From a virus, in UHGV virus genome UHGV-0091795: DNA of 44,295 bases; one strand, written 5' to 3'. Made by a program: the position numbers and the translations under genes. Positions 1 to 23,197 of this stretch are shown in pieces. The first letter of the stretch is position 1, and each line of letters opens with the position of its first letter. Below the pieces are notes generated by a model. It was not told the DNA's origin. It saw only the letters and a list, made by a program, of their open reading frames with translations, and did not search any database.

Positions 1-550
1 TAATTCAAAGCATTACCCCATCAACACTGCGCTCACACGTCCCACCACATCAAAACATGTAAGGCCTTGCAAGCCATTGCGAGGCCTTAGGTGTCTCAGT
101 TTTGTCCCACCTTTTATTACGACTTCCATAGCCAATGAAGATAAACGTGACGACAAACGGCGCAGCAGTCTTCTTTCCCTTCACACTTTTCCCACCCAGC
201 ATGCATACCTTCTACCATAACTGTAGTGAATGTGTTATGAACGAGATGCGGACATTGGCAGCCTCAACAACATGACTGGCATTGAGGCGTATTAATCAGT
301 GGGGAGCAGGTCACGCCATCTATAATGGAAAACGTGCTGGTGACCTGCCGATACTCAGTCTCAGGCAGCGAATACAATTACACATAGTTGGAAAAATATG
401 TTAGCGCAACCAGTGATATCCGCGGCTTTCTCTGGAAAAATGTGTTAGTTTCTCTAAGCCATGTCCATTGCTAAAATAGGTATTCTTTTATTCTGTAAAA
501 ATCGGATATTTTCTCAAGCGCTGATGTAGGAATAGTTTTTTTGTTTATAC

Positions 551-862
551 TCAAACCTGTTTGTGTTTTTTTAGTTCTGCGATAATGTATTCATCATCAA
601 TATAATCCTCTCTCTCTCCAATGAAGTTTATTATGAATTCTTTTGCTTTTAAAGCTTTTGTGATGTGATATTTTTCATTGAATAGAATATACACTTTGAA
701 AATAGAATTGATGTGCTCATTAAAAATCGGCATTATTGGGAAAGATTCATCCATCTGTGTCAGGTCAGTCTTTACCCGACGCCCCCACTTCGAAAATCCA
801 CGAATCAATTCATCTCTCATGAAATATACGATTAACTCTACAATTAATTTTCTGTTAATCAA
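551..862 (-). CDS. hypothetical protein (AT-rich small ORF)
   Basis: 103-aa ORF in AT-rich DNA upstream of the GmrSD-like gene; no motif recognised. Confidence 0.3.
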   Translation of the reverse strand: MINRKLIVELIVYFMRDELIRGFSKWGRRVKTDLTQMDESFPIMPIFNEHINSIFKVYILFNEKYHITKALKAKEFIINFIGEREDYIDDEYIIAELKKHKQV

Positions 863-1447
863 TATGGAACCCTAAAAGAGCACACTTGATCTGTATCATA
901 TCGGCTTAAGTCGCCAAGAATAGCCCCATCTTAATCAATATAATAAGTTTTTTATTCCCCTCTGATCCTGCATACCACCAATGTCCGTTCCTGGCACTTA
1001 GCAGCCCTAGAGACAGTGGCGTAAAGTCATGGAGGAGCGGTGGGAGGAGGTGCAAATCCTCTCATACAAAAAATACGTAAAATCGATAACGGCTTGACAT
1101 AATTCAATACTAGCACTATCGGAAGTTCACCAGCCAGTCGCAGCTGACTATTGTATACGACATGTCTGCAGCTTCAATACCCGATAGTGCCATCTACAAT
1201 GATTTAGCAGCGCTTGGATAAAAAAACAGCAGCAACAGTGTGCTAACAATCTCGACAAAACACCGACGCAATGGAGAACAGACAAAAGAGAATATCCAAT
1301 GAAGCCGTAGCACGTCAGCATTCAAAAGCGGGATTTCTCGTTTTTACTTCACCAGCAACAAATACACTGTATCATGACTACATAAAAATGATTATTCTGA
1401 CTCAGATGAATTTCTTACTCTTGTGGAATGTCACTTATAGGTAAACA

Positions 1448-3337
1448 ATGAAATCCGAAACGCTAACCATCCAGCAACTTTTCCAAAATCAACGACAATA
1501 TCGTGTTCCATTCTATCAACGTGCCTACGTATGGACGCAACAAAACCAATGGTCAGCTTTGCTGGAGGATATCTTCGAAAAAGCACATAGCCGACTTTTG
1601 GGAACAAAACCAACTCCCCATTTCCTTGGCGCGGTGGTGCTGGAACCTCAACTCAAAAACAGCTTGTTAGGTGTAGATACCATACATATTATTGACGGCC
1701 AGCAACGTTTAACCACTCTTCAATATATTCTGGCATCCATTCGATTATCATTGCGTGCTACAGGCCTTTCTGATTTGGAAGGGTTAGTATTGACTTGCTT
1801 GAAAAATACAAACGAAGCAACTATGCGAAATAAAAAGGTAGAATGCTTCAAACTGTGGCCAACTTTTCGAGACCAAACTCATTTTATTCAAAGTTTTAAT
1901 GTTGAAAACATTGACGATCTCCGTGATGTATTTTCTGATAGCTTCACGCAACATGGTACGTTACGTAAACATTTCAACCACCCGCCGTCACTAGAGGCAT
2001 TATGGTTTTTTACTGAAGCCTTTATAAAATGGATTAAAATAGAAAAGTACTCACCACATGAAAATGCTGTAGCACTAATTGAGGCTGTCTTGACGGATCT
2101 GAAACTGGTAAGCATATTTCTCGAAGCTGAAGATGATGCCCAAATAATTTTTGAAACATTAAATGGCCGAGGGGCGGAACTTCATGCCACGGATCTTATT
2201 CGCAACTACATCTTTATGTGCGCTGAGCATGAAAATATTAATGCTATTGAATTATATGAAAATGAGTGGAAGAGCTTTGAAGATACATACTGGTCGGAAA
2301 GGCAACGCCGTGGACGTATTAATAAACCACGCATGGAGTGGCTAGTGCATGCGACATTGCAATCAGAAAGGCAACGTGAAATTGATCTGTCTCGTCTTTA
2401 CAATGAGTATCGTGATTATGTAAGTAAGGACTTGCCTTCACAACGAGCTGATCTGCAAGTAAAGCGCCTCAAACAATATGCATCACAATATAAAGAATTG
2501 GTTGGTGGTTTTGGCACAACCCCCATCTCACACTTTGGACATCGCATCGCAGCCTATGATGTGACGACACTTTATCCGCTTGCTTTGTTCATTTCGATAG
2601 CTAACATCGCCGATGGTGAGAAAGCAGCCATGTATAATGATCTTGTCTCCTACGTAGTACGAAGAGCCGTATGTGGCCTGACGCCAAAGAATTACAACAA
2701 TGTATTTATGAATGTATTGCGGCACTTGTCTAAAACGGAAATTTCCAGTGTTGAGTTACGTAATATCCTCAATAGCTTAAATGGCGAAGCCTCACGTTGG
2801 CCTGGTGACTCAGAATTTCTCAATGCTTGCATCAATGCTCCACTTTATCCTGGCAGGCTCGACGCACCGAAAATGCGCTCAATGTTAACGGAACTTGAAA
2901 GAGAACTTTGTCGCCAAGTGAAGACAGAGAAGCCTGATGTTCCAAATCTTTCCAATCTCGATATCGATCATCTTATGCCTCAAAGTTGGTATTCCTGTTG
3001 GCCTCTCGAAAATGGTCATATGGTGACAAATTCAGATGCAACGGTATTGAACCAAATTGTTCTGTCTGGAACAGATCTTACCCCTGAACAGCTACTGGTA
3101 AGGAAACGGCAACAAGCGATAGCTACGTTGGGAAATCTAACTTTGCTTAACCTTAGCGTAAACCGTTCTGTTCAGAATGCTGTATTTCTGAAAAAACGTG
3201 ATGCTCTCATCGTCCACACCAATCTACGACTGAACATACCACTTATACTTAAGGATAAATGGGATGAAGGTGAAATCCTGGAGCGGGGTAAAAAGTTGGG
3301 GGAAATTGCATTGAAAGTATGGCCAAAACACAATTAA
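1448..3337 (+). CDS. GmrSD-like type IV (modification-dependent) restriction endonuclease, DUF262 N-terminus + DUF1524 C-terminus
   Basis: 629-aa ORF. N-terminus has YQRAYVW and the DGQQR(LTT) signature of DUF262/ParB-like NTPase domains; C-terminus has DIDHLMPQSW, a His-Me finger (DUF1524-like) motif. Confidence 0.7.
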   Translation: MKSETLTIQQLFQNQRQYRVPFYQRAYVWTQQNQWSALLEDIFEKAHSRLLGTKPTPHFLGAVVLEPQLKNSLLGVDTIHIIDGQQRLTTLQYILASIRLSLRATGLSDLEGLVLTCLKNTNEATMRNKKVECFKLWPTFRDQTHFIQSFNVENIDDLRDVFSDSFTQHGTLRKHFNHPPSLEALWFFTEAFIKWIKIEKYSPHENAVALIEAVLTDLKLVSIFLEAEDDAQIIFETLNGRGAELHATDLIRNYIFMCAEHENINAIELYENEWKSFEDTYWSERQRRGRINKPRMEWLVHATLQSERQREIDLSRLYNEYRDYVSKDLPSQRADLQVKRLKQYASQYKELVGGFGTTPISHFGHRIAAYDVTTLYPLALFISIANIADGEKAAMYNDLVSYVVRRAVCGLTPKNYNNVFMNVLRHLSKTEISSVELRNILNSLNGEASRWPGDSEFLNACINAPLYPGRLDAPKMRSMLTELERELCRQVKTEKPDVPNLSNLDIDHLMPQSWYSCWPLENGHMVTNSDATVLNQIVLSGTDLTPEQLLVRKRQQAIATLGNLTLLNLSVNRSVQNAVFLKKRDALIVHTNLRLNIPLILKDKWDEGEILERGKKLGEIALKVWPKHN

Positions 3338-3361
3338 TGCAATTAATAAAATGATTATAGC

Positions 3362-3381
3362 GGCCTTACATTAGTAAGGCC
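3362..3381. terminator. hairpin between the convergent GmrSD-like gene and the invertase remnant
   Basis: Inverted repeat ggccttac-atta-gtaaggcc; no clean T-tract, so function is uncertain. Confidence 0.3.
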
Positions 3382-3562
3382 ACAACTCACTATTAAATCC
3401 TTTAATTTGCATCAAGAACAGCAGTGTCAGCCCTAGGCTCTCGGACTTTGTACCGCTTATCTTATCTTCAAAAATCAGCTCGCATCCTGCACAGTTCAGC
3501 GCATTACGTTGTAGATCTGTGTTCTGGTCATTTGTTGACACACGTACATAGCCAATAAGCAT
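3371..3562 (-). pseudogene. pin: truncated Din-family serine DNA invertase (Pin/Gin/Hin-like)
   Basis: N-terminus MLIGYVRVSTNDQNTDLQRNAL is near-identical to Pin/Gin/Hin including the catalytic Ser region. The ORF diverges after about 45 residues and stops after about 63 codons; intact invertases are about 185-190 aa. Its 3' end abuts the GmrSD-like gene. Confidence 0.75.
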
Positions 3563-3588
3563 GGTAGATCTCCCTGACAAAAGCAGGA

Positions 3589-4131
3589 ATGATGCCATTT
3601 GCTCGTTATTTCTGCATTTTCATAAATGTTGGTTTGGGAGAAGGCTCTGCATTACCGGTTGGGGTGCCTGTTCCGTGGCCTTCAGCCACTCCGCCAACAG
3701 GCTGGCTGAAATGCAACGGTGCCGCTTTTTCTGCTGAAGAATACCCGGAACTGGCAAAGGCTTATCCGACAAATAAATTGCCTGATTTACGTGGTGAGTT
3801 TATTCGTGGCTGGGATGACGGGCGTGGTATTGATGCTGTACGTGCCTTGCTAAGTCTTCAGAATGGAGGAGTGGAATCACACACCCACCAAGGGCAGCTC
3901 TTCAGAGTTAGTGATTATCGTACAAAAGAAATACCAGCATCAGAAGTTATGGGAAGAGGATATATTGCAAGCCTGACGCCGGGTGCTGATAGCCCACTTG
4001 ATTTTGATGATTATTCTGTATCTTCTAATCCAAATGGATATTTTGTCGGGAATCAGAGAACAACAGCATATGGGATAAATGAAACCCGTCCACGGAATAT
4101 TGCATTTAACTATATCGTGAGGGCTGCATAA
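3589..4131 (+). CDS. alternative tail-fibre C-terminal (receptor-binding) segment inside the invertible region
   Basis: Contains PVGVPVPWPSATPPTGWLKCNGAAFSAEEYPELAKAYP, typical of Mu S/P2 H/e14 Stf C-termini. It lies opposite the expressed tail-fibre gene and shares the GLGE junction at the crossover site. Confidence 0.6.
   Translation: MMPFARYFCIFINVGLGEGSALPVGVPVPWPSATPPTGWLKCNGAAFSAEEYPELAKAYPTNKLPDLRGEFIRGWDDGRGIDAVRALLSLQNGGVESHTHQGQLFRVSDYRTKEIPASEVMGRGYIASLTPGADSPLDFDDYSVSSNPNGYFVGNQRTTAYGINETRPRNIAFNYIVRAA
3624..3643. repeat. hix/gix-like inversion crossover site (invertase-proximal copy)
   Basis: aaatgttggtttgggagaag is an inverted copy (18/20 identical) of 5489-5508, about 56 bp upstream of the pin start. 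Confidence 0.6.
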
Positions 4132-4733
4132 TGGATAACGCTGTATTAAATAGCGAGTTTATTGCTACAAAGGCGGGGAATATTACCGTCTATAACTATG
4201 ATGGCGAAACACGGGAATATATTTCCACATCAACTGAATATCTTGCCGTTGGTGTCGGTATCCCTGCATATTCCTGTTTAGATGCCCCTGGCACATACAA
4301 AGCTGGTTATGCAATCTGCCGATCTGTAGATTTTAACTCATGGGAATATGTGCCAGACCATCGCGGTGAAATCGTCTTTAGCACCGAAACAGGAGAATCA
4401 AAAGAAATCACAGTTCCGGGTGATTACCCTGATAATACAACCACTATCGCCCCTTTATCTCCATACGATAAATGGGATGGTGAGAAATGGGTGACCGATA
4501 CTGAGGCACAGCATAGCGCCGCAGTAGACGCGGCAGAAGCACAGCGCCAGTCACTGATTGATGCTGCAATGGCTTCCATCAGTCTGATTCAGCTGAAATT
4601 AAAGGCCGGACGGAAACTGACGCAGGCAGAAACAACCCAGCTTAACGCTGTGCTGGATTACATTGACGCGGTGACGGCAACAGATACCAGCACCGCGCCG
4701 AATGTCATCTGGCCTGAACTGCCGGAGGCGTAG
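4131..4733 (+). CDS. tail-fibre assembly protein (alternative copy, Tfa/U'-like)
   Basis: 200-aa ORF immediately after the alternative fibre segment; its 3' end overlaps the convergent minus-strand tfa gene, as in Mu G-segment and e14 P-segment layouts. Confidence 0.65.
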   Translation: MDNAVLNSEFIATKAGNITVYNYDGETREYISTSTEYLAVGVGIPAYSCLDAPGTYKAGYAICRSVDFNSWEYVPDHRGEIVFSTETGESKEITVPGDYPDNTTTIAPLSPYDKWDGEKWVTDTEAQHSAAVDAAEAQRQSLIDAAMASISLIQLKLKAGRKLTQAETTQLNAVLDYIDAVTATDTSTAPNVIWPELPEA

Positions 4734-5166
4734 GCCATTCAATATCTGGAGCACTGGAGGGATCAACCAGCTCCAGTGCGTCCAGATAATCCAGCCACAA
4801 ATTATATTGTGCCAGTTCCTCACCTTTCAGACGACCGATAGCTGCTTTACCAGGCCATTGCTTACCGTTCATGTATTCGTTGGCATGGTCAATTCTCGAC
4901 TTTTTCTCTGAGTCAGCCGCAGCAAGTTGTTCTTTATGCGTAGGTGACGGAAGATCTACCCAGCAAGGCAACCCATCATCACCAATGCCACGCATTTTAC
5001 CCTCAGGAGCGTTTCCCATGAAAACCAGTGCATCTTCAGCATTTATATTGATGCCGTCTGACGGCCATGTGCCAGCAGTTAAATAATCATATTTCAGTGC
5101 CACAAGATAAAAAGCATTTTCCGTCGGGCTGAATACATAGTCGACCATTAATATCCTACTCCCCAT
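4705..5166 (-). CDS. tail-fibre assembly protein (Tfa/U-like)
   Basis: 153-aa ORF directly downstream of the tail-fibre gene; C-terminal region resembles the plus-strand copy ([20 protein letters not shown] versus [23 protein letters not shown]). Confidence 0.65.
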
Positions 5167-5792
5167 ACTGCCACTGTTGAATTAGATTTCGTGTATGCGC
5201 AAGCGGCTTTGAATTTGACCCGGTCAACAATCGCTGCGCTAACAAAAGGGGCTCCATTAGTCGCGTAGATCACAGAATTGACCAGCGAAGGATTGATGGA
5301 AAGGCAAGCATTAGGAAAGGCAACCGGCCATGAGTCATCAACAACGACCATATTACCGTCGGTAGATTGCGGCACTGATAGCGTCTTCCACTGAAGCAAT
5401 GCTGTTCGTTGTACTCCACCAATTAATACTGGAATAGTGATGTTACCTGCACTGCTGGCTAATGCTGTCGCAGCAGGCATTTTCGCTGCTTCTCCCAAAC
5501 CAAGGTTTTCGAGAGCCGTTTTCACCGTGCCATCCGATTTGATATCGCCAAACGGATTCTTGCGGCTTAACAGCAGCGCACGAAGCGCGGTAAGCAGCTG
5601 GTCATGCCGCCCCTTCTCCAGGCTGGCACCGGAGGCCTCCACCACGCTGCAAAGCTCCTCCTGCAACATGTCAAAGTAGTCATCATCCAGATCGGTGGCA
5701 GGTGTGCCGGTCTGGGGGTTACCACGGGTAAAACCGTTCTTACCCGCGCCGAACTTATCCTTCTGCGCGGTTTTCGTGTCTATACGATGCAT
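5148..5792 (-). CDS. tail-fibre protein (constant N-terminus + currently expressed variable C-terminus)
   Basis: 214-aa ORF following the baseplate genes; the crossover site lies inside the gene at about codon 95 ([10 protein letters not shown]). Confidence 0.65.
5489..5508. repeat. hix/gix-like inversion crossover site (inside the tail-fibre gene)
   Basis: cttctcccaaaccaaggttt contains the palindromic core aaaccaaggtttt resembling Hin/Gin recombination sites; inverted copy of 3624-3643. Confidence 0.6.
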
Positions 5793-5795
5793 GGA

Positions 5796-6380
5796 TTACT
5801 CCGGATATTTAAAAATTATGTAGGTATGCGACGGGCAGAGTTTGTTAAGCACACACTCGACAACGGTGTCGCCCCAGATACGCAGTGCGGAATCACAGGG
5901 ATCGCCACATGTCATCCAGGTGGTGTTGGTGTCGGCTGGCATGTTGATCTGCCAGTAATACCGCCATTCCGGCGCATTCACCGCGTCAGTACAGGCCGAT
6001 GAGCAGGTGAACGTGCTTTTGTCGTATCGCGTGATGGTGGCATCTGGTCTGCCCAGGGCAGCAAGCTGTGCAAGATAAAAATCCTCGTTGATGCCGCCCG
6101 CCAGGTTAACCTTCGCATCCAGCCGTTGCTGACGCTGGCGAAGGGTCTGCGTTACCGCCGGAATACATTCATCCGGCAGACCGCACAGACGCTCCCAGCG
6201 GTTTATCAGTTCAGTGGTGGTGCGCGGATCCAGCTCCCGCATCAGGGCATCCGCACGCTGATGAACGCGGGTTAATGACGGTGCTGCACCGGCAATCGCC
6301 GGATCGCTGGCTGACCACGCCGGACCAGGGGGCAACAGTGCCGACAACAGACGGATGTAATCATCGTTTGTCACGTCCAT
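5796..6380 (-). CDS. phage tail protein (Mu gp48-like, DUF2313/YmfQ-like)
   Basis: 194-aa ORF between the baseplate J-like gene and the tail fibre, in the Mu-like gene order. Confidence 0.5.
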
Positions 6381-7429
6381 GAAATCGTCCCCAGAACCGC
6401 CAGTTCATTTTTCGCAATGGAGATATTGTCCGCCGGGGCAAGCAACTGATGGCTGTATTCCCCGTTCGCACCGGAAATCGCTTCACTGATACGTGACACC
6501 TTCAGTTCTCCCTGCGGATAACCATCACGCAGCAGGAACGAACGCAACTCGGCGGTGATGGCAGCCCGTATTTCCGGTGTGTCCGGCGTCACGCGGATAT
6601 GAAAATCCACTTTATGCGCCACCGGCCTGAATACATACAAATCAGAGCCTGCCACCGGGGCCAGTGGCTCGATATGTTGTCTTGCCGACGTTTCCGTTGA
6701 CTCTTCCGGAATGGGATTAATCAGGTCACTGCTGGCAATCATCACACCGACAGTCCCCGTTCCCATCCAGTGTCGGTATATCCATGCGCGGGTAATGCCG
6801 GGCACTTCTTTAGCCCAGACGACATAGTCCCCGTCAGCCCCGCCCTGAGGCGTCCAGTAATACCGCTCAATGACGCGGGCGCGCCACGTTTCCAGATCTT
6901 CAGCATCAAATCCGCCTGTCAGGGTGTCAGCCACACCGGAAGACGGCAGACCATTCACCGGCGTGACCAGGATTAATGCCGTACCGTCGTCAGTGTTACC
7001 GACCGCGCCTGCATTTGAGCAGGCGATCGGCACACGCAGGACACCACCGGAGCTGGTTGCATCGGCAGTTGCCGTGTACTGAACCAGGTCATCGCGCTGA
7101 ATCACGCTCCCGGCAGTCACCTTCAGGCCATCGCTGACACCTTCCCAGCGCATATACCCGCTGGCAGCCGTGGCCCCCTTGCGCGGACACCGTTTCATCG
7201 CAGCATGTCGCGCCAGCCAGGACTCATCGCACAGGTCAGGCAGCATGTTCATTGCCAGATAATCGATGTACCCGTAAACCGTATGCAGCGCCGCCGCATA
7301 CACCTTTGCCCGCACGTCTTCATCCATGCGCCGGAGCGTGTCGCTGACGTCCAGCCTGGCGAATAAATCGTTACGGAGCATACTGATATTTTCTGCCAGC
7401 GTCGGGCGCTGAAATTCACTGTCCGCCAT
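6371..7429 (-). CDS. baseplate J-like protein (Mu gp47-like)
   Basis: 352-aa ORF in a conserved position within the Mu-like baseplate block; overlapping start/stop coupling with neighbours. Confidence 0.55.
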
Positions 7430-22846: not shown

Positions 22847-23197
22847 TTACTTCAGCCGTTCACGGGCCGTCTTCGCCTTATGACACGGCCAGCACAGACT
22901 CTGCAGATTATTGTCGGCATCAGTGCCGCCATGCGCTTTAGGGATGATGTGGTCAACGGTTTTTGCTTCACGCACCACGCCAGCACGCTGGCATAACTGA
23001 CATAAACCTTTGTCACGCTTCAGCACGCGCGCGCGGATAACGTCCCACTTCGAACCATAACCGCGCTGATGACGGGACTGACCTGGCTTGTATTGCTTCC
23101 AGCCTTCGCTTTTGTGGCTTTCGCAGTAGCCTGAAGGATCTGTGGTGGTATGGCGGCAGCCGCGAAAACGGCAGGCTTTTGGGGTTCGTGGTGGCAT
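22847..23197 (-). CDS. HNH endonuclease (packaging-associated)
   Basis: 116-aa ORF with Cys-rich zinc-finger and HNH-like motifs (DHIIPKAHGG ... CWPCH) immediately upstream of the terminase genes, as in HK97-like phages. Confidence 0.7.
   Translation of the reverse strand: MPPRTPKACRFRGCRHTTTDPSGYCESHKSEGWKQYKPGQSRHQRGYGSKWDVIRARVLKRDKGLCQLCQRAGVVREAKTVDHIIPKAHGGTDADNNLQSLCWPCHKAKTARERLK

Follow-up and report, generated by a model that had tools for sequence, protein, structure and literature searches.

Can a phage tail-fibre switch stay operable once the gene for its own recombinase has been destroyed? The question is raised by a locus in the virus genome UHGV-0091795, of which the whole stretch of 44,295 nucleotides (the window) was analysed. 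The preliminary description proposed a Din-family invertible tail-fibre segment at this locus, a proposal borne out both by the identity of the crossover sites and by a gene order that matches that of the e14 prophage of E. coli K-12. An inverted repeat at 3624-3643 and 5489-5508, described as identical at 18 of 20 positions, was recovered as such by an inverted-repeat search. By itself, this repeat is unexceptional, since the first 9 kb hold 32 such pairs with repeats of 14 nt or more, three of which are longer than this one. The pair is significant because its sequences are pix crossover sites, rather than because of the repeat itself:

5490-5515, plus strand: pixL-type site of 26 bp inside the fibre gene, core at 5502-5503, 26/26 identical to the published e14 pixL.
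3617-3642, minus strand: pixR-type site of 26 bp adjoining the pin remnant, core at 3629-3630, 25/26 identical to the published pixR.

Positions 5490-5515 of the window read TTCTCCCAAACC AA GGTTTTCGAGAG, and the reverse complement of 3617-3642 reads TTCTCCCAAACC AA CATTTATGAAAA. Both sites have an AA core dinucleotide and are inverted relative to each other. The lone mismatch to pixR is a G-to-A substitution at a Din-consensus position of the outer half-site (CGTTT to CATTT). When all 44,295 bases were scanned with the Din-site consensus, exactly these two inverted matches were returned against 0.11 expected, and two matches occurred in 0 of 100 shuffled controls. A Hin/Gin-like core had been noted in both repeats; the resemblance to Din sites holds, but the string aaaccaaggtttt is present only in the right site, the left one reading aaaccaacattt.

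Between the 2-bp cores lies the invertible DNA (3631-5501, 1871 bp), and the following genes lie in or across it:

3589-4131, plus strand: silent fibre C-terminus of the stfE type (variable part 3643-4131), with the Pfam Collar (Phage Tail Collar) domain, E = 6e-16.
4131-4733, plus strand: tfaE-type assembly gene, partner of the silent tip, with Pfam Caudo_TAP, E = 9e-32; 90% identical to K-12 TfaE.
4705-5148, minus strand: tfaP-type assembly gene, partner of the current tip (coordinates from PGAP), with Caudo_TAP, E = 5e-29; 50% identical to K-12 TfaP.
5148-5792, minus strand: currently assembled tail-fibre gene, 214 aa, whose open reading frame spans the right pix site.

These reading frames and their Pfam domains agree with the earlier claim of two convergent sets, each a fibre C-terminus with a tail-fibre assembly gene, and the frame that crosses the right site confirms that the minus-strand set alone is fused to the constant N-terminus. 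In the 214-aa fibre, the constant N-terminus (5516-5792) lies outside the segment and shares 100 of its first 101 residues with K-12 StfP, and the variable stfP-type C-terminus (5148-5489) lies inside it; the protein has a weak match to Gp53-like_C that falls below the Pfam cut-off. The silent stfE-type tip is 56% identical to K-12 stfE, and the ATG of its reading frame lies outside the segment, as it does in the K-12 stfE pseudogene. The convergent tfaP-type and tfaE-type genes overlap by 29 nt at their 3' ends. Inverting the segment in silico joins the silent tip to the constant N-terminus in frame and yields an alternative fibre of 263 aa.

In the proposed mechanism, two inverted 26-bp pix sites bound 1871 bp holding two convergent promoterless cassettes, each composed of a fibre C-terminal tip and its own assembly chaperone. 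A Din-family serine invertase would cut the central AA/TT dinucleotide of each site and exchange the strands, so that with each flip the constant N-terminus on the minus strand (5516-5792) would change between the stfP-type tip, its present partner in a fibre of 214 aa, and the stfE-type tip with the Collar domain, which would give a fibre of 263 aa. The receptor specificity of the phage would change with the orientation of the segment. Recombination by this family takes place in an invertasome that needs the invertase, Fis, supercoiled DNA and sites in cis. A scan of 3250-5900 for promoters and terminators gave no signal above chance, which fits a promoterless segment and is no evidence by itself.

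The segment very probably represents one allele of the P segment, the invertible element found in E. coli prophages of the e14 type (SfV/e14-like, with a Mu-type baseplate), and judged by its sequence it is more exactly an e14 P-segment allele with pix sites than something merely 'hix/gix-like'. As such it is already known: the Pin/pix P segment has been studied since 1985 and is found in thousands of E. coli genomes, and the reference system is the e14 P segment of K-12 with PinE and pixL-pixR (Plasterk & van de Putte 1985; Mehta et al. 2004; PMC12529663). The window shares with e14 its sites (26/26 and 25/26), its constant N-terminus (100/101), TfaE (90%), the order ymfQ, fibre with constant N-terminus, tfaP, tfaE, stfE, pin, the 29-nt overlap of the convergent tfa genes, and an orphan stfE reading frame that starts outside the segment. 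It differs in that pin is cut to 42 codons, that the neighbouring defence gene is GmrSD rather than McrA, that the receptor-binding tips and TfaP have diverged (50-76%), and that the segment measures 1871 bp as against 1797 bp. Furthermore, e14 is reduced to a 15-kb remnant but the window prophage has a morphogenesis module that looks complete, and the prophage site is thrW/proA in the related genome ET201 but icd for e14. As for the ends of the prophage, we found no tRNA in the window, and its two ends share no att-like repeat. ET201 is 100% identical to the window over 3340-5830 and 99.7% identical over 1-23197 only, diverging beyond; because identity ends at 23197, its annotation, with many 'frameshifted' CDS, was rejected for the whole window, whose own reading frames are full length. 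The ET201 genome also contains a second pin-like place.

The same plan recurs in the G segment of Mu with Gin and in the C segment of P1 with Cin: two convergent sets of tip and chaperone genes between 26-bp Din sites, a constant N-terminus beyond them, and an adjoining serine invertase gene whose 5' end holds an enhancer, as pin probably does in the window. Gin, Cin and Pin are interchangeable in function. Unlike the window, Mu and P1 have gix sites with a GA core and other half-sites, longer segments (~3 kb for Mu G, ~4.2 kb for P1 C) and intact invertase genes. The Salmonella H segment, with Hin and hix, shares the recombinase family, the 12-2-12 site layout and the AA core, and its enhancer sits inside the 5' coding region of hin, as the putative one of the window does in pin; however, it carries a promoter and hin itself and controls flagellin genes, whereas the segment in the window is promoterless and swaps the coding ends of a fibre gene.

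What sets the window apart is the state of its invertase gene and of the DNA next to it:

1448-3337, plus strand: gene for a GmrSD/DUF262 type IV modification-dependent restriction enzyme, 629 aa, with Pfam GmrSD_N and GmrSD_C.
3361-3384, unstranded: GC-rich hairpin gcggccttacattagtaaggccac, just 3' of the GmrSD stop codon and before the endpoint of pin homology.
3371-3562, minus strand: pin remnant, ATG at 3562, with codons 1-42, at 3437-3562, identical to PinE.
3478-3541, unstranded: putative Fis-dependent recombinational enhancer, assigned by equivalent position, within the retained 5' part of pin.

The cis invertase had been called truncated, and indeed only residues 1-42 of the 184 of PinE are left, a result also reached by tblastn with PinE residues 1-49. 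In a DNA alignment to intact pinE, homology fades by about 3412-3440, and an out-of-context tail runs on to the stop at 3371. The remnant keeps the catalytic Ser9 and lacks most of the catalytic domain and the entire DNA-binding domain; Pfam recognizes the Resolvase N-terminal domain only, at profile positions 2-52 of 145, and PGAP labels the remnant in ET201 'recombinase family protein, incomplete'. We found no second serine recombinase in the 44-kb window. The segment lost its own invertase when a restriction-enzyme cassette took over three quarters of pin: the low-GC GmrSD cassette (~0.34-0.43, against 0.55-0.60 in the tail module) now stands in place of everything after codon 42. The GmrSD gene itself, which matches PADLOC mREase_IV over its full length (1476 bits), is context and lies outside the switch proper; the hairpin is probably its terminator.

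The retained 5' piece of pin would still supply a Fis-dependent enhancer in cis. The Hin enhancer spans 65 bp, lies ~100 bp from a hix site and holds ATTTA/TAATG between its two Fis sites (PMC3798978). The equivalent codons in the window (DLQRNA, containing TAATG) are at 3500-3517, ~120 bp from the centre of pixR, and the putative enhancer stretch is identical to that in the intact pinE of PEC122. Among four intact invertase genes, synonymous sites are most conserved in codons 1-20, a weak signal for an enhancer because other peaks stand beside it. Taken on position and sequence, the enhancer is probably retained in the pin stub.

Comparison with relatives shows that homologous segments invert naturally, both with and without a cis invertase. 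The P2-like prophages of the sister isolates SW071619 and SW071611, which have an intact 191-aa invertase, carry a segment 98% identical to that of the window in opposite orientations between flanks that are 100% identical. In UTI89 and APEC O1, the same GmrSD-pin remnant stands beside a homologous P segment (91-96% identity to that of the window where alignable); the two segments are exact reverse complements (1925/1925), with a single mismatch and a single gap between their flanks over >10 kb. In both of these independent natural pairs, the inversion breakpoints coincide exactly with the site cores. All comparisons used complete assemblies, each orientation recurring in many of them, and junction queries found one orientation in 79 genomes and the opposite one in 24. 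For the window's own 96-nt pin-pixR junction, only exact full-length matches were used, and genome counts at >=80% coverage were set aside because only the last 12 nt differ between orientations, to which such counts are blind. The identical junction, including the G-to-A substitution, occurs in six complete genomes, all in the orientation of the window; an intact pinE is present in one of them, and three are clonal.

With its cis pin dead, the segment could invert only through a trans-acting Din invertase, and another such enzyme in the same cell would have to act in trans. The preliminary description had likewise argued that switching would require an invertase from elsewhere, and this is supported by the precedent of PinQ, PinR and PinE and by the inversion in UTI89 and APEC O1 beside the same pin remnant. 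Trans inversion of the P segment was demonstrated experimentally in 2025: the e14 P segment is inverted by each of PinE, PinQ and PinR, and PinE can also flip the G and H segments, the second of which is flipped by Fin too (PMC12529663). Fin of Fels-2 is reported to act in trans on the Salmonella H segment (Kutsukake et al. 2006). In these cases, a segment is flipped by the invertase of a prophage located elsewhere in the genome, as the orphaned segment of the window would need and as UTI89 and APEC O1 imply. The targets of PinQ/PinR and Fin, however, keep their own invertase, whereas in the window and the UTI89-type prophage the cis gene is dead, and thus dependence on a trans enzyme would be complete. 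The orphaned segment of UTI89 lies in its ssrA prophage. The one other pin-like gene of this strain, at 918974-919573 of NZ_CP062228.1, belongs to a P2-like prophage and encodes a complete invertase of 199 aa with 77% identity to PinE, and the orphaned segments of these close relatives are presumably flipped by the invertase of another prophage. Natural inversions at pix cores in a lineage with remnant pin therefore indicate that an orphaned switch can stay live through the enzymes of other prophages. For the window's own allele, with its G-to-A change in pixR, we consider it somewhat more likely than not that it still flips in its host.

The alternative with the most in its favour is that the segment, once invertible, is now locked in the stfP-type orientation in this lineage, leaving the phage with a single fixed host range, either because no compatible invertase is present or expressed or because the pixR substitution or a partial loss of the enhancer disables the reaction. 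We give this a minority, though substantial, chance. It is favoured by the dead cis invertase and by the single orientation in all six exact-junction genomes, although six genomes, three of them clonal, are too small a sample to show locking. The pixR substitution does fall at a consensus position, but half-sites that diverge far more are tolerated in natural sites, hixR among them. Deletion of pinE in K-12 locks the P segment despite the presence of native pinQ and pinR (PMC12529663); in our own reading, that deletion probably also removes the enhancer. Against permanent locking, the UTI89/APEC O1 lineage inverts with the same pin remnant, Din invertases cross-react widely, and 4692 of 5426 complete E. 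coli genomes have a match to the pin portion lacking in the window.

A second alternative, which we regard as unlikely, assigns the locus a main present role in host defence rather than phage host range, in that a flip would make an orphan chimera of the StfE2 type that keeps other phages from adsorbing. In K-12, StfE2 is reported to arise when PinQ inverts the P segment of e14, and to block the adsorption of T2 (PMC12529663). The window shares the orphan-frame architecture of K-12, its flipped orphan frame would join an 18-aa leader from 3589 to the stfP-type tip in a StfE2-like protein of 131 aa, and the locus adjoins the defence gene GmrSD. Yet the fibre tips are only 56-76% identical to those of K-12, a divergence because of which the T2-blocking property is not transferable to the window, and the region upstream of the orphan frame shows nothing promoter-like above chance level. 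Moreover, unlike K-12 e14, the window prophage has full-length morphogenesis reading frames (terminase, portal, capsid, sheath, tape measure), which therefore make an ordinary host-range switch plausible.

That the repeat is a chance match, or that the orientation differences stem from RecA-dependent recombination or assembly error, is hardly credible and effectively refuted by pix-site identity and core-exact breakpoints: an 18/20 inverted repeat in 9 kb is unremarkable alone and short-read assemblers can mis-orient repeat-bounded segments, but the sites are identical or nearly so to experimentally defined pix sites and unique in the window, the breakpoints coincide with the site cores in two independent natural pairs, both orientations recur among complete assemblies, and the perfect identity of ~15-16 bp is too short for efficient RecA recombination.

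The reading that we prefer, a P segment orphaned from its invertase and dependent on trans enzymes, bears on the prediction of phage host range, on the interpretation of prophage 'pseudogenes' in annotation, and on the recent claim that P-segment inversion serves defence. What it adds to a known system is that a restriction-gene cassette removed the invertase in a widespread prophage lineage, in which clean inversions at the pix cores nevertheless persist. The lineage with the GmrSD insertion includes UTI89, APEC O1, IHE3034, S88 and NU14. It is possible, if rather doubtful, that the insertion created prophages without a fibre-switch enzyme of their own, driven entirely by invertases that other prophages in the same cell provide, for example the P2-like prophage of UTI89, with the 42-codon pin stub kept for its enhancer. 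If true, this would be a natural regulatory dependency between prophages that sets host range, or a surface defence of the StfE2 type.

The tail-fibre segment of about 1.9 kb that the preliminary description placed at 3624-5508 is indeed present, with its limits corrected to 3631-5501. As described there, it carries two convergent sets of fibre C-terminus and assembly genes (3643-4733 on the plus strand versus 4705-5489 on the minus strand), and the constant N-terminus is joined to the minus-strand tip only, in a 214-aa fibre (5148-5792) that contains the crossover site pixL.

Features of the segment and its surroundings
1448-3337, plus strand: GmrSD/DUF262 type IV restriction gene
3361-3384: hairpin
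3371-3562, minus strand: remnant of pin, the Din-family serine invertase gene
3617-3642: pixR, 25/26 to the published pixR
3643-4131, plus strand: Collar-domain fibre C-terminus, in an ORF whose ATG lies at 3589, outside the segment
4131-4733, plus strand: tfaE-type assembly gene
4705-5148, minus strand: tfaP-type assembly gene
5148-5792, minus strand: fibre gene, 214 aa, containing pixL
5490-5515: pixL, 26/26 to the published pixL
Right of the fibre gene: ymfQ, baseplate J and the remaining Mu-type contractile tail module

An inverted-repeat search recovered the pair 3624-3643 / 5489-5508 at 18/20 identity. The repeats are thus present on alignment, as had been proposed, but their extent had to be revised to two 26-bp sites (3617-3642 and 5490-5515). 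By itself the 18/20 repeat is unremarkable, because the first 9 kb hold 32 inverted-repeat pairs of 14 nt or more, three of them longer than this one. Rather, its significance lies in sequence identity. Read as 12-2-12, the right site (5490-5515) is TTCTCCCAAACC AA GGTTTTCGAGAG, and the left site (reverse complement of 3617-3642) is TTCTCCCAAACC AA CATTTATGAAAA. Compared with the Din-family site table, in which pixL is TTCTCCCAAACC AA GGTTTTCGAGAG and pixR is TTCTCCCAAACC AA CGTTTATGAAAA (PMC3241671), they match at 26/26 and 25/26 positions, respectively, and at one position that the Din consensus conserves, the window's pixR has A in place of G. Both also agree with the repeats reported for the P segment, the invertible segment of the K-12 prophage e14 (TTGGTTTGGGAGAAGG / CCTTCTCCCAAACCAA; PMC12529663). 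When we scanned all 44,295 bases with the Din-site consensus TTCNNNNAAACCNANGTTT, allowing at most one mismatch, only 3617-3642 and 5490-5515 matched, inverted to each other (0.11 matches expected by chance; two matches in 0 of 100 shuffles).

The gene order ymfQ-stfP-tfaP-tfaE-stfE-pinE and the sites of e14 in K-12 MG1655, a constant N-terminus equal to that of StfP at 100 of the first 101 residues, and 90% identity to TfaE together identify the segment as a P-segment allele of the e14 type. The tips differ more (fibre 76% over 166 residues, stfE 56%, TfaP 50% identity), and, unlike in K-12 e14, the ORFs for morphogenesis, lysis, replication and integrase are full length in the window's prophage. 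Inverting 3631-5501 in silico yields an in-frame 263-aa fibre with the Collar-domain tip at its end, together with an orphan ORF of 131 aa, the analogue of the published e14 inversion chimera StfE2. A promoter scan found no promoter-like sites above chance in the segment, consistent with expression via fusion to the constant part. We also observed a second inverted repeat mid-segment (4652-4669 / 4778-4795, 18 nt, 83%) and a 29-nt overlap of the tfaE and tfaP 3′ ends (4705-4733), the latter shared with K-12 e14; both arise because a conserved Tfa C-terminal motif (LDYIDAV / LDYLDAL) is encoded convergently.

The cis invertase is truncated, as the preliminary description held. Aligned with an intact pinE (PEC122) and a P2-type invertase, the remnant is near-identical from its ATG at 3562 through codon 42, and homology then decays from ~3440 to 3412; by tblastn, only PinE residues 1-49 are matched, and no second serine recombinase was found in the 44-kb window. 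Left of the breakpoint GC falls to 34-43%, versus 55-60% in the tail genes, and the type IV restriction enzyme encoded there is full length (PADLOC mREase_IV, 1476 bits); the position beyond pin in e14 is also held by a type IV enzyme, McrA there and GmrSD here. Taken together, these features show that a defence-gene cassette replaced three quarters of pin (codons 43-184). The GmrSD-pin junction recurs at ~97% identity across numerous complete genomes, among them UTI89, S88, NU14, APEC O1 and IHE3034. In both prophages the slot past pin (window 1448-3440; K-12 locus 6347-7180) is occupied by a gene for type IV modification-dependent restriction, and this prophage end looks like a hotspot of defence-gene exchange. 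Further left, window 1-1448 is AT-rich (GC 0.34-0.43), carries one small hypothetical ORF only (551-862, minus strand; no PADLOC match), and matches YZ22PE67 at 100%; in that genome the stretch comes after paoD and a truncated LysR gene.

Din inversion normally requires a 65-bp Fis-bound enhancer in the 5′ coding region of the invertase gene. This element lies about 100 bp from one site, and in hin ATTTA and TAATG stand between the two Fis sites (PMC3798978). Because the equivalent codons DLQRNA (with TAATG) are at 3500-3517, the enhancer equivalent would lie at ~3478-3541, an interval entirely within the retained pin stub and identical to intact pinE; a synonymous-site conservation test weakly supports the position. 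Deletion of pinE in K-12 locks the segment although native pinQ and pinR are present (PMC12529663), which would be explained if the enhancer were lost too.

Comparison of relatives reveals inversion both with and without a cis invertase. SW071619 and SW071611, sister isolates from wastewater, each carry a segment with 98% identity to the window's, within a P2-like prophage whose 191-aa invertase is intact; the middle 1878 nt are inverted between them, and the flanks match at 100% over 3020 and 3015 nt. With a cis invertase, such a segment therefore inverts. A homologous segment inverts without one too. UTI89 and APEC O1, both of which we take to be ST95, have the same prophage, located at ssrA, and in it the same GmrSD gene and pin remnant; their P segment is 91-96% identical to the window's where alignable. 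Between the site cores, 1925/1925 nt are identical as reverse complement, and in the flanks there is a single gap across 6343 nt and a single mismatch across 4109 nt. When 741-nt junction sequences served as queries, with more than 200 nt required on each side of the site, 79 genomes fell in the UTI89-type orientation and 24 in the APEC O1-type. This is evidence that orphaned segments, their cis invertase lost to the GmrSD cassette, still flip in nature. The window's own exact 96-nt pin-pixR junction occurs in six complete genomes (YZ22PE67, YZ22PE68, YZ22PE106, ET201, JNEC-KY203 and Z1323PEC0011), 6/6 oriented as the window and 0 flipped, three of them clonal and the sample too small to decide. 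Separately, in the CX series, which share chromosome length, coordinates near 4,524,680 and an intact pinE, CX04/05/15/21 match the flipped-junction query and their sister CX07 the current one, which hints at another natural orientation polymorphism.

UTI89 offers a concrete candidate for a trans-acting enzyme. Its one other pin-like gene lies in a P2-like prophage with its own GA-core invertible fibre segment and encodes an intact invertase of 199 aa with 77% identity to PinE; UTI89 thus has two Din-type switches and one enzyme. The gix-like sites of that prophage (NZ_CP062228.1 914134-924412) are TTCCTGTAAACC GA GGTTTTAAATAA and TTCTCGTAAACC GA GGTATTCGATAA. Din invertases work across systems, and PinQ, PinR and PinE alike invert the e14 P segment (PMC12529663). 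The part of pin missing in the window is matched in 4692 of 5426 complete E. coli genomes.

The window's source is E. coli. Region 3340-5830 is 100% identical to strain ET201, but the window is not ET201, since identity of 99.7% extends over 1-23197 only. The two share the tail and head half at that level and beyond it just patches of 94-97%; the prophage is thus a mosaic. Many CDS annotated as frameshifted in ET201 have full-length counterparts in the window (25 gaps in 23 kb), which suggests homopolymer errors of assembly, not real decay. YZ22PE67 1662-7167 matches window 1-5506 at 99.98%, ending inside pixL; past 5506 homology is not detectable, what comes next is another tail module, with DUF2612 and a different baseplate J, and the outer half-site GGTATGTGAGAA resembles that of the P2-type prophage. 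The pix site thus marks a mosaic junction of unrelated tail modules, at which site-specific and homologous exchange are alike possible.

The feature is therefore real and was rightly interpreted, yet it belongs to a system known for a long time, the P segment of e14 with Pin/pix, which ranks with Mu G/Gin and P1 C/Cin among the Din-family fibre switches. Two additions are minor yet useful: a GmrSD cassette has cost the segment its cis invertase, and there is evidence that orphaned segments of this kind go on flipping in nature.
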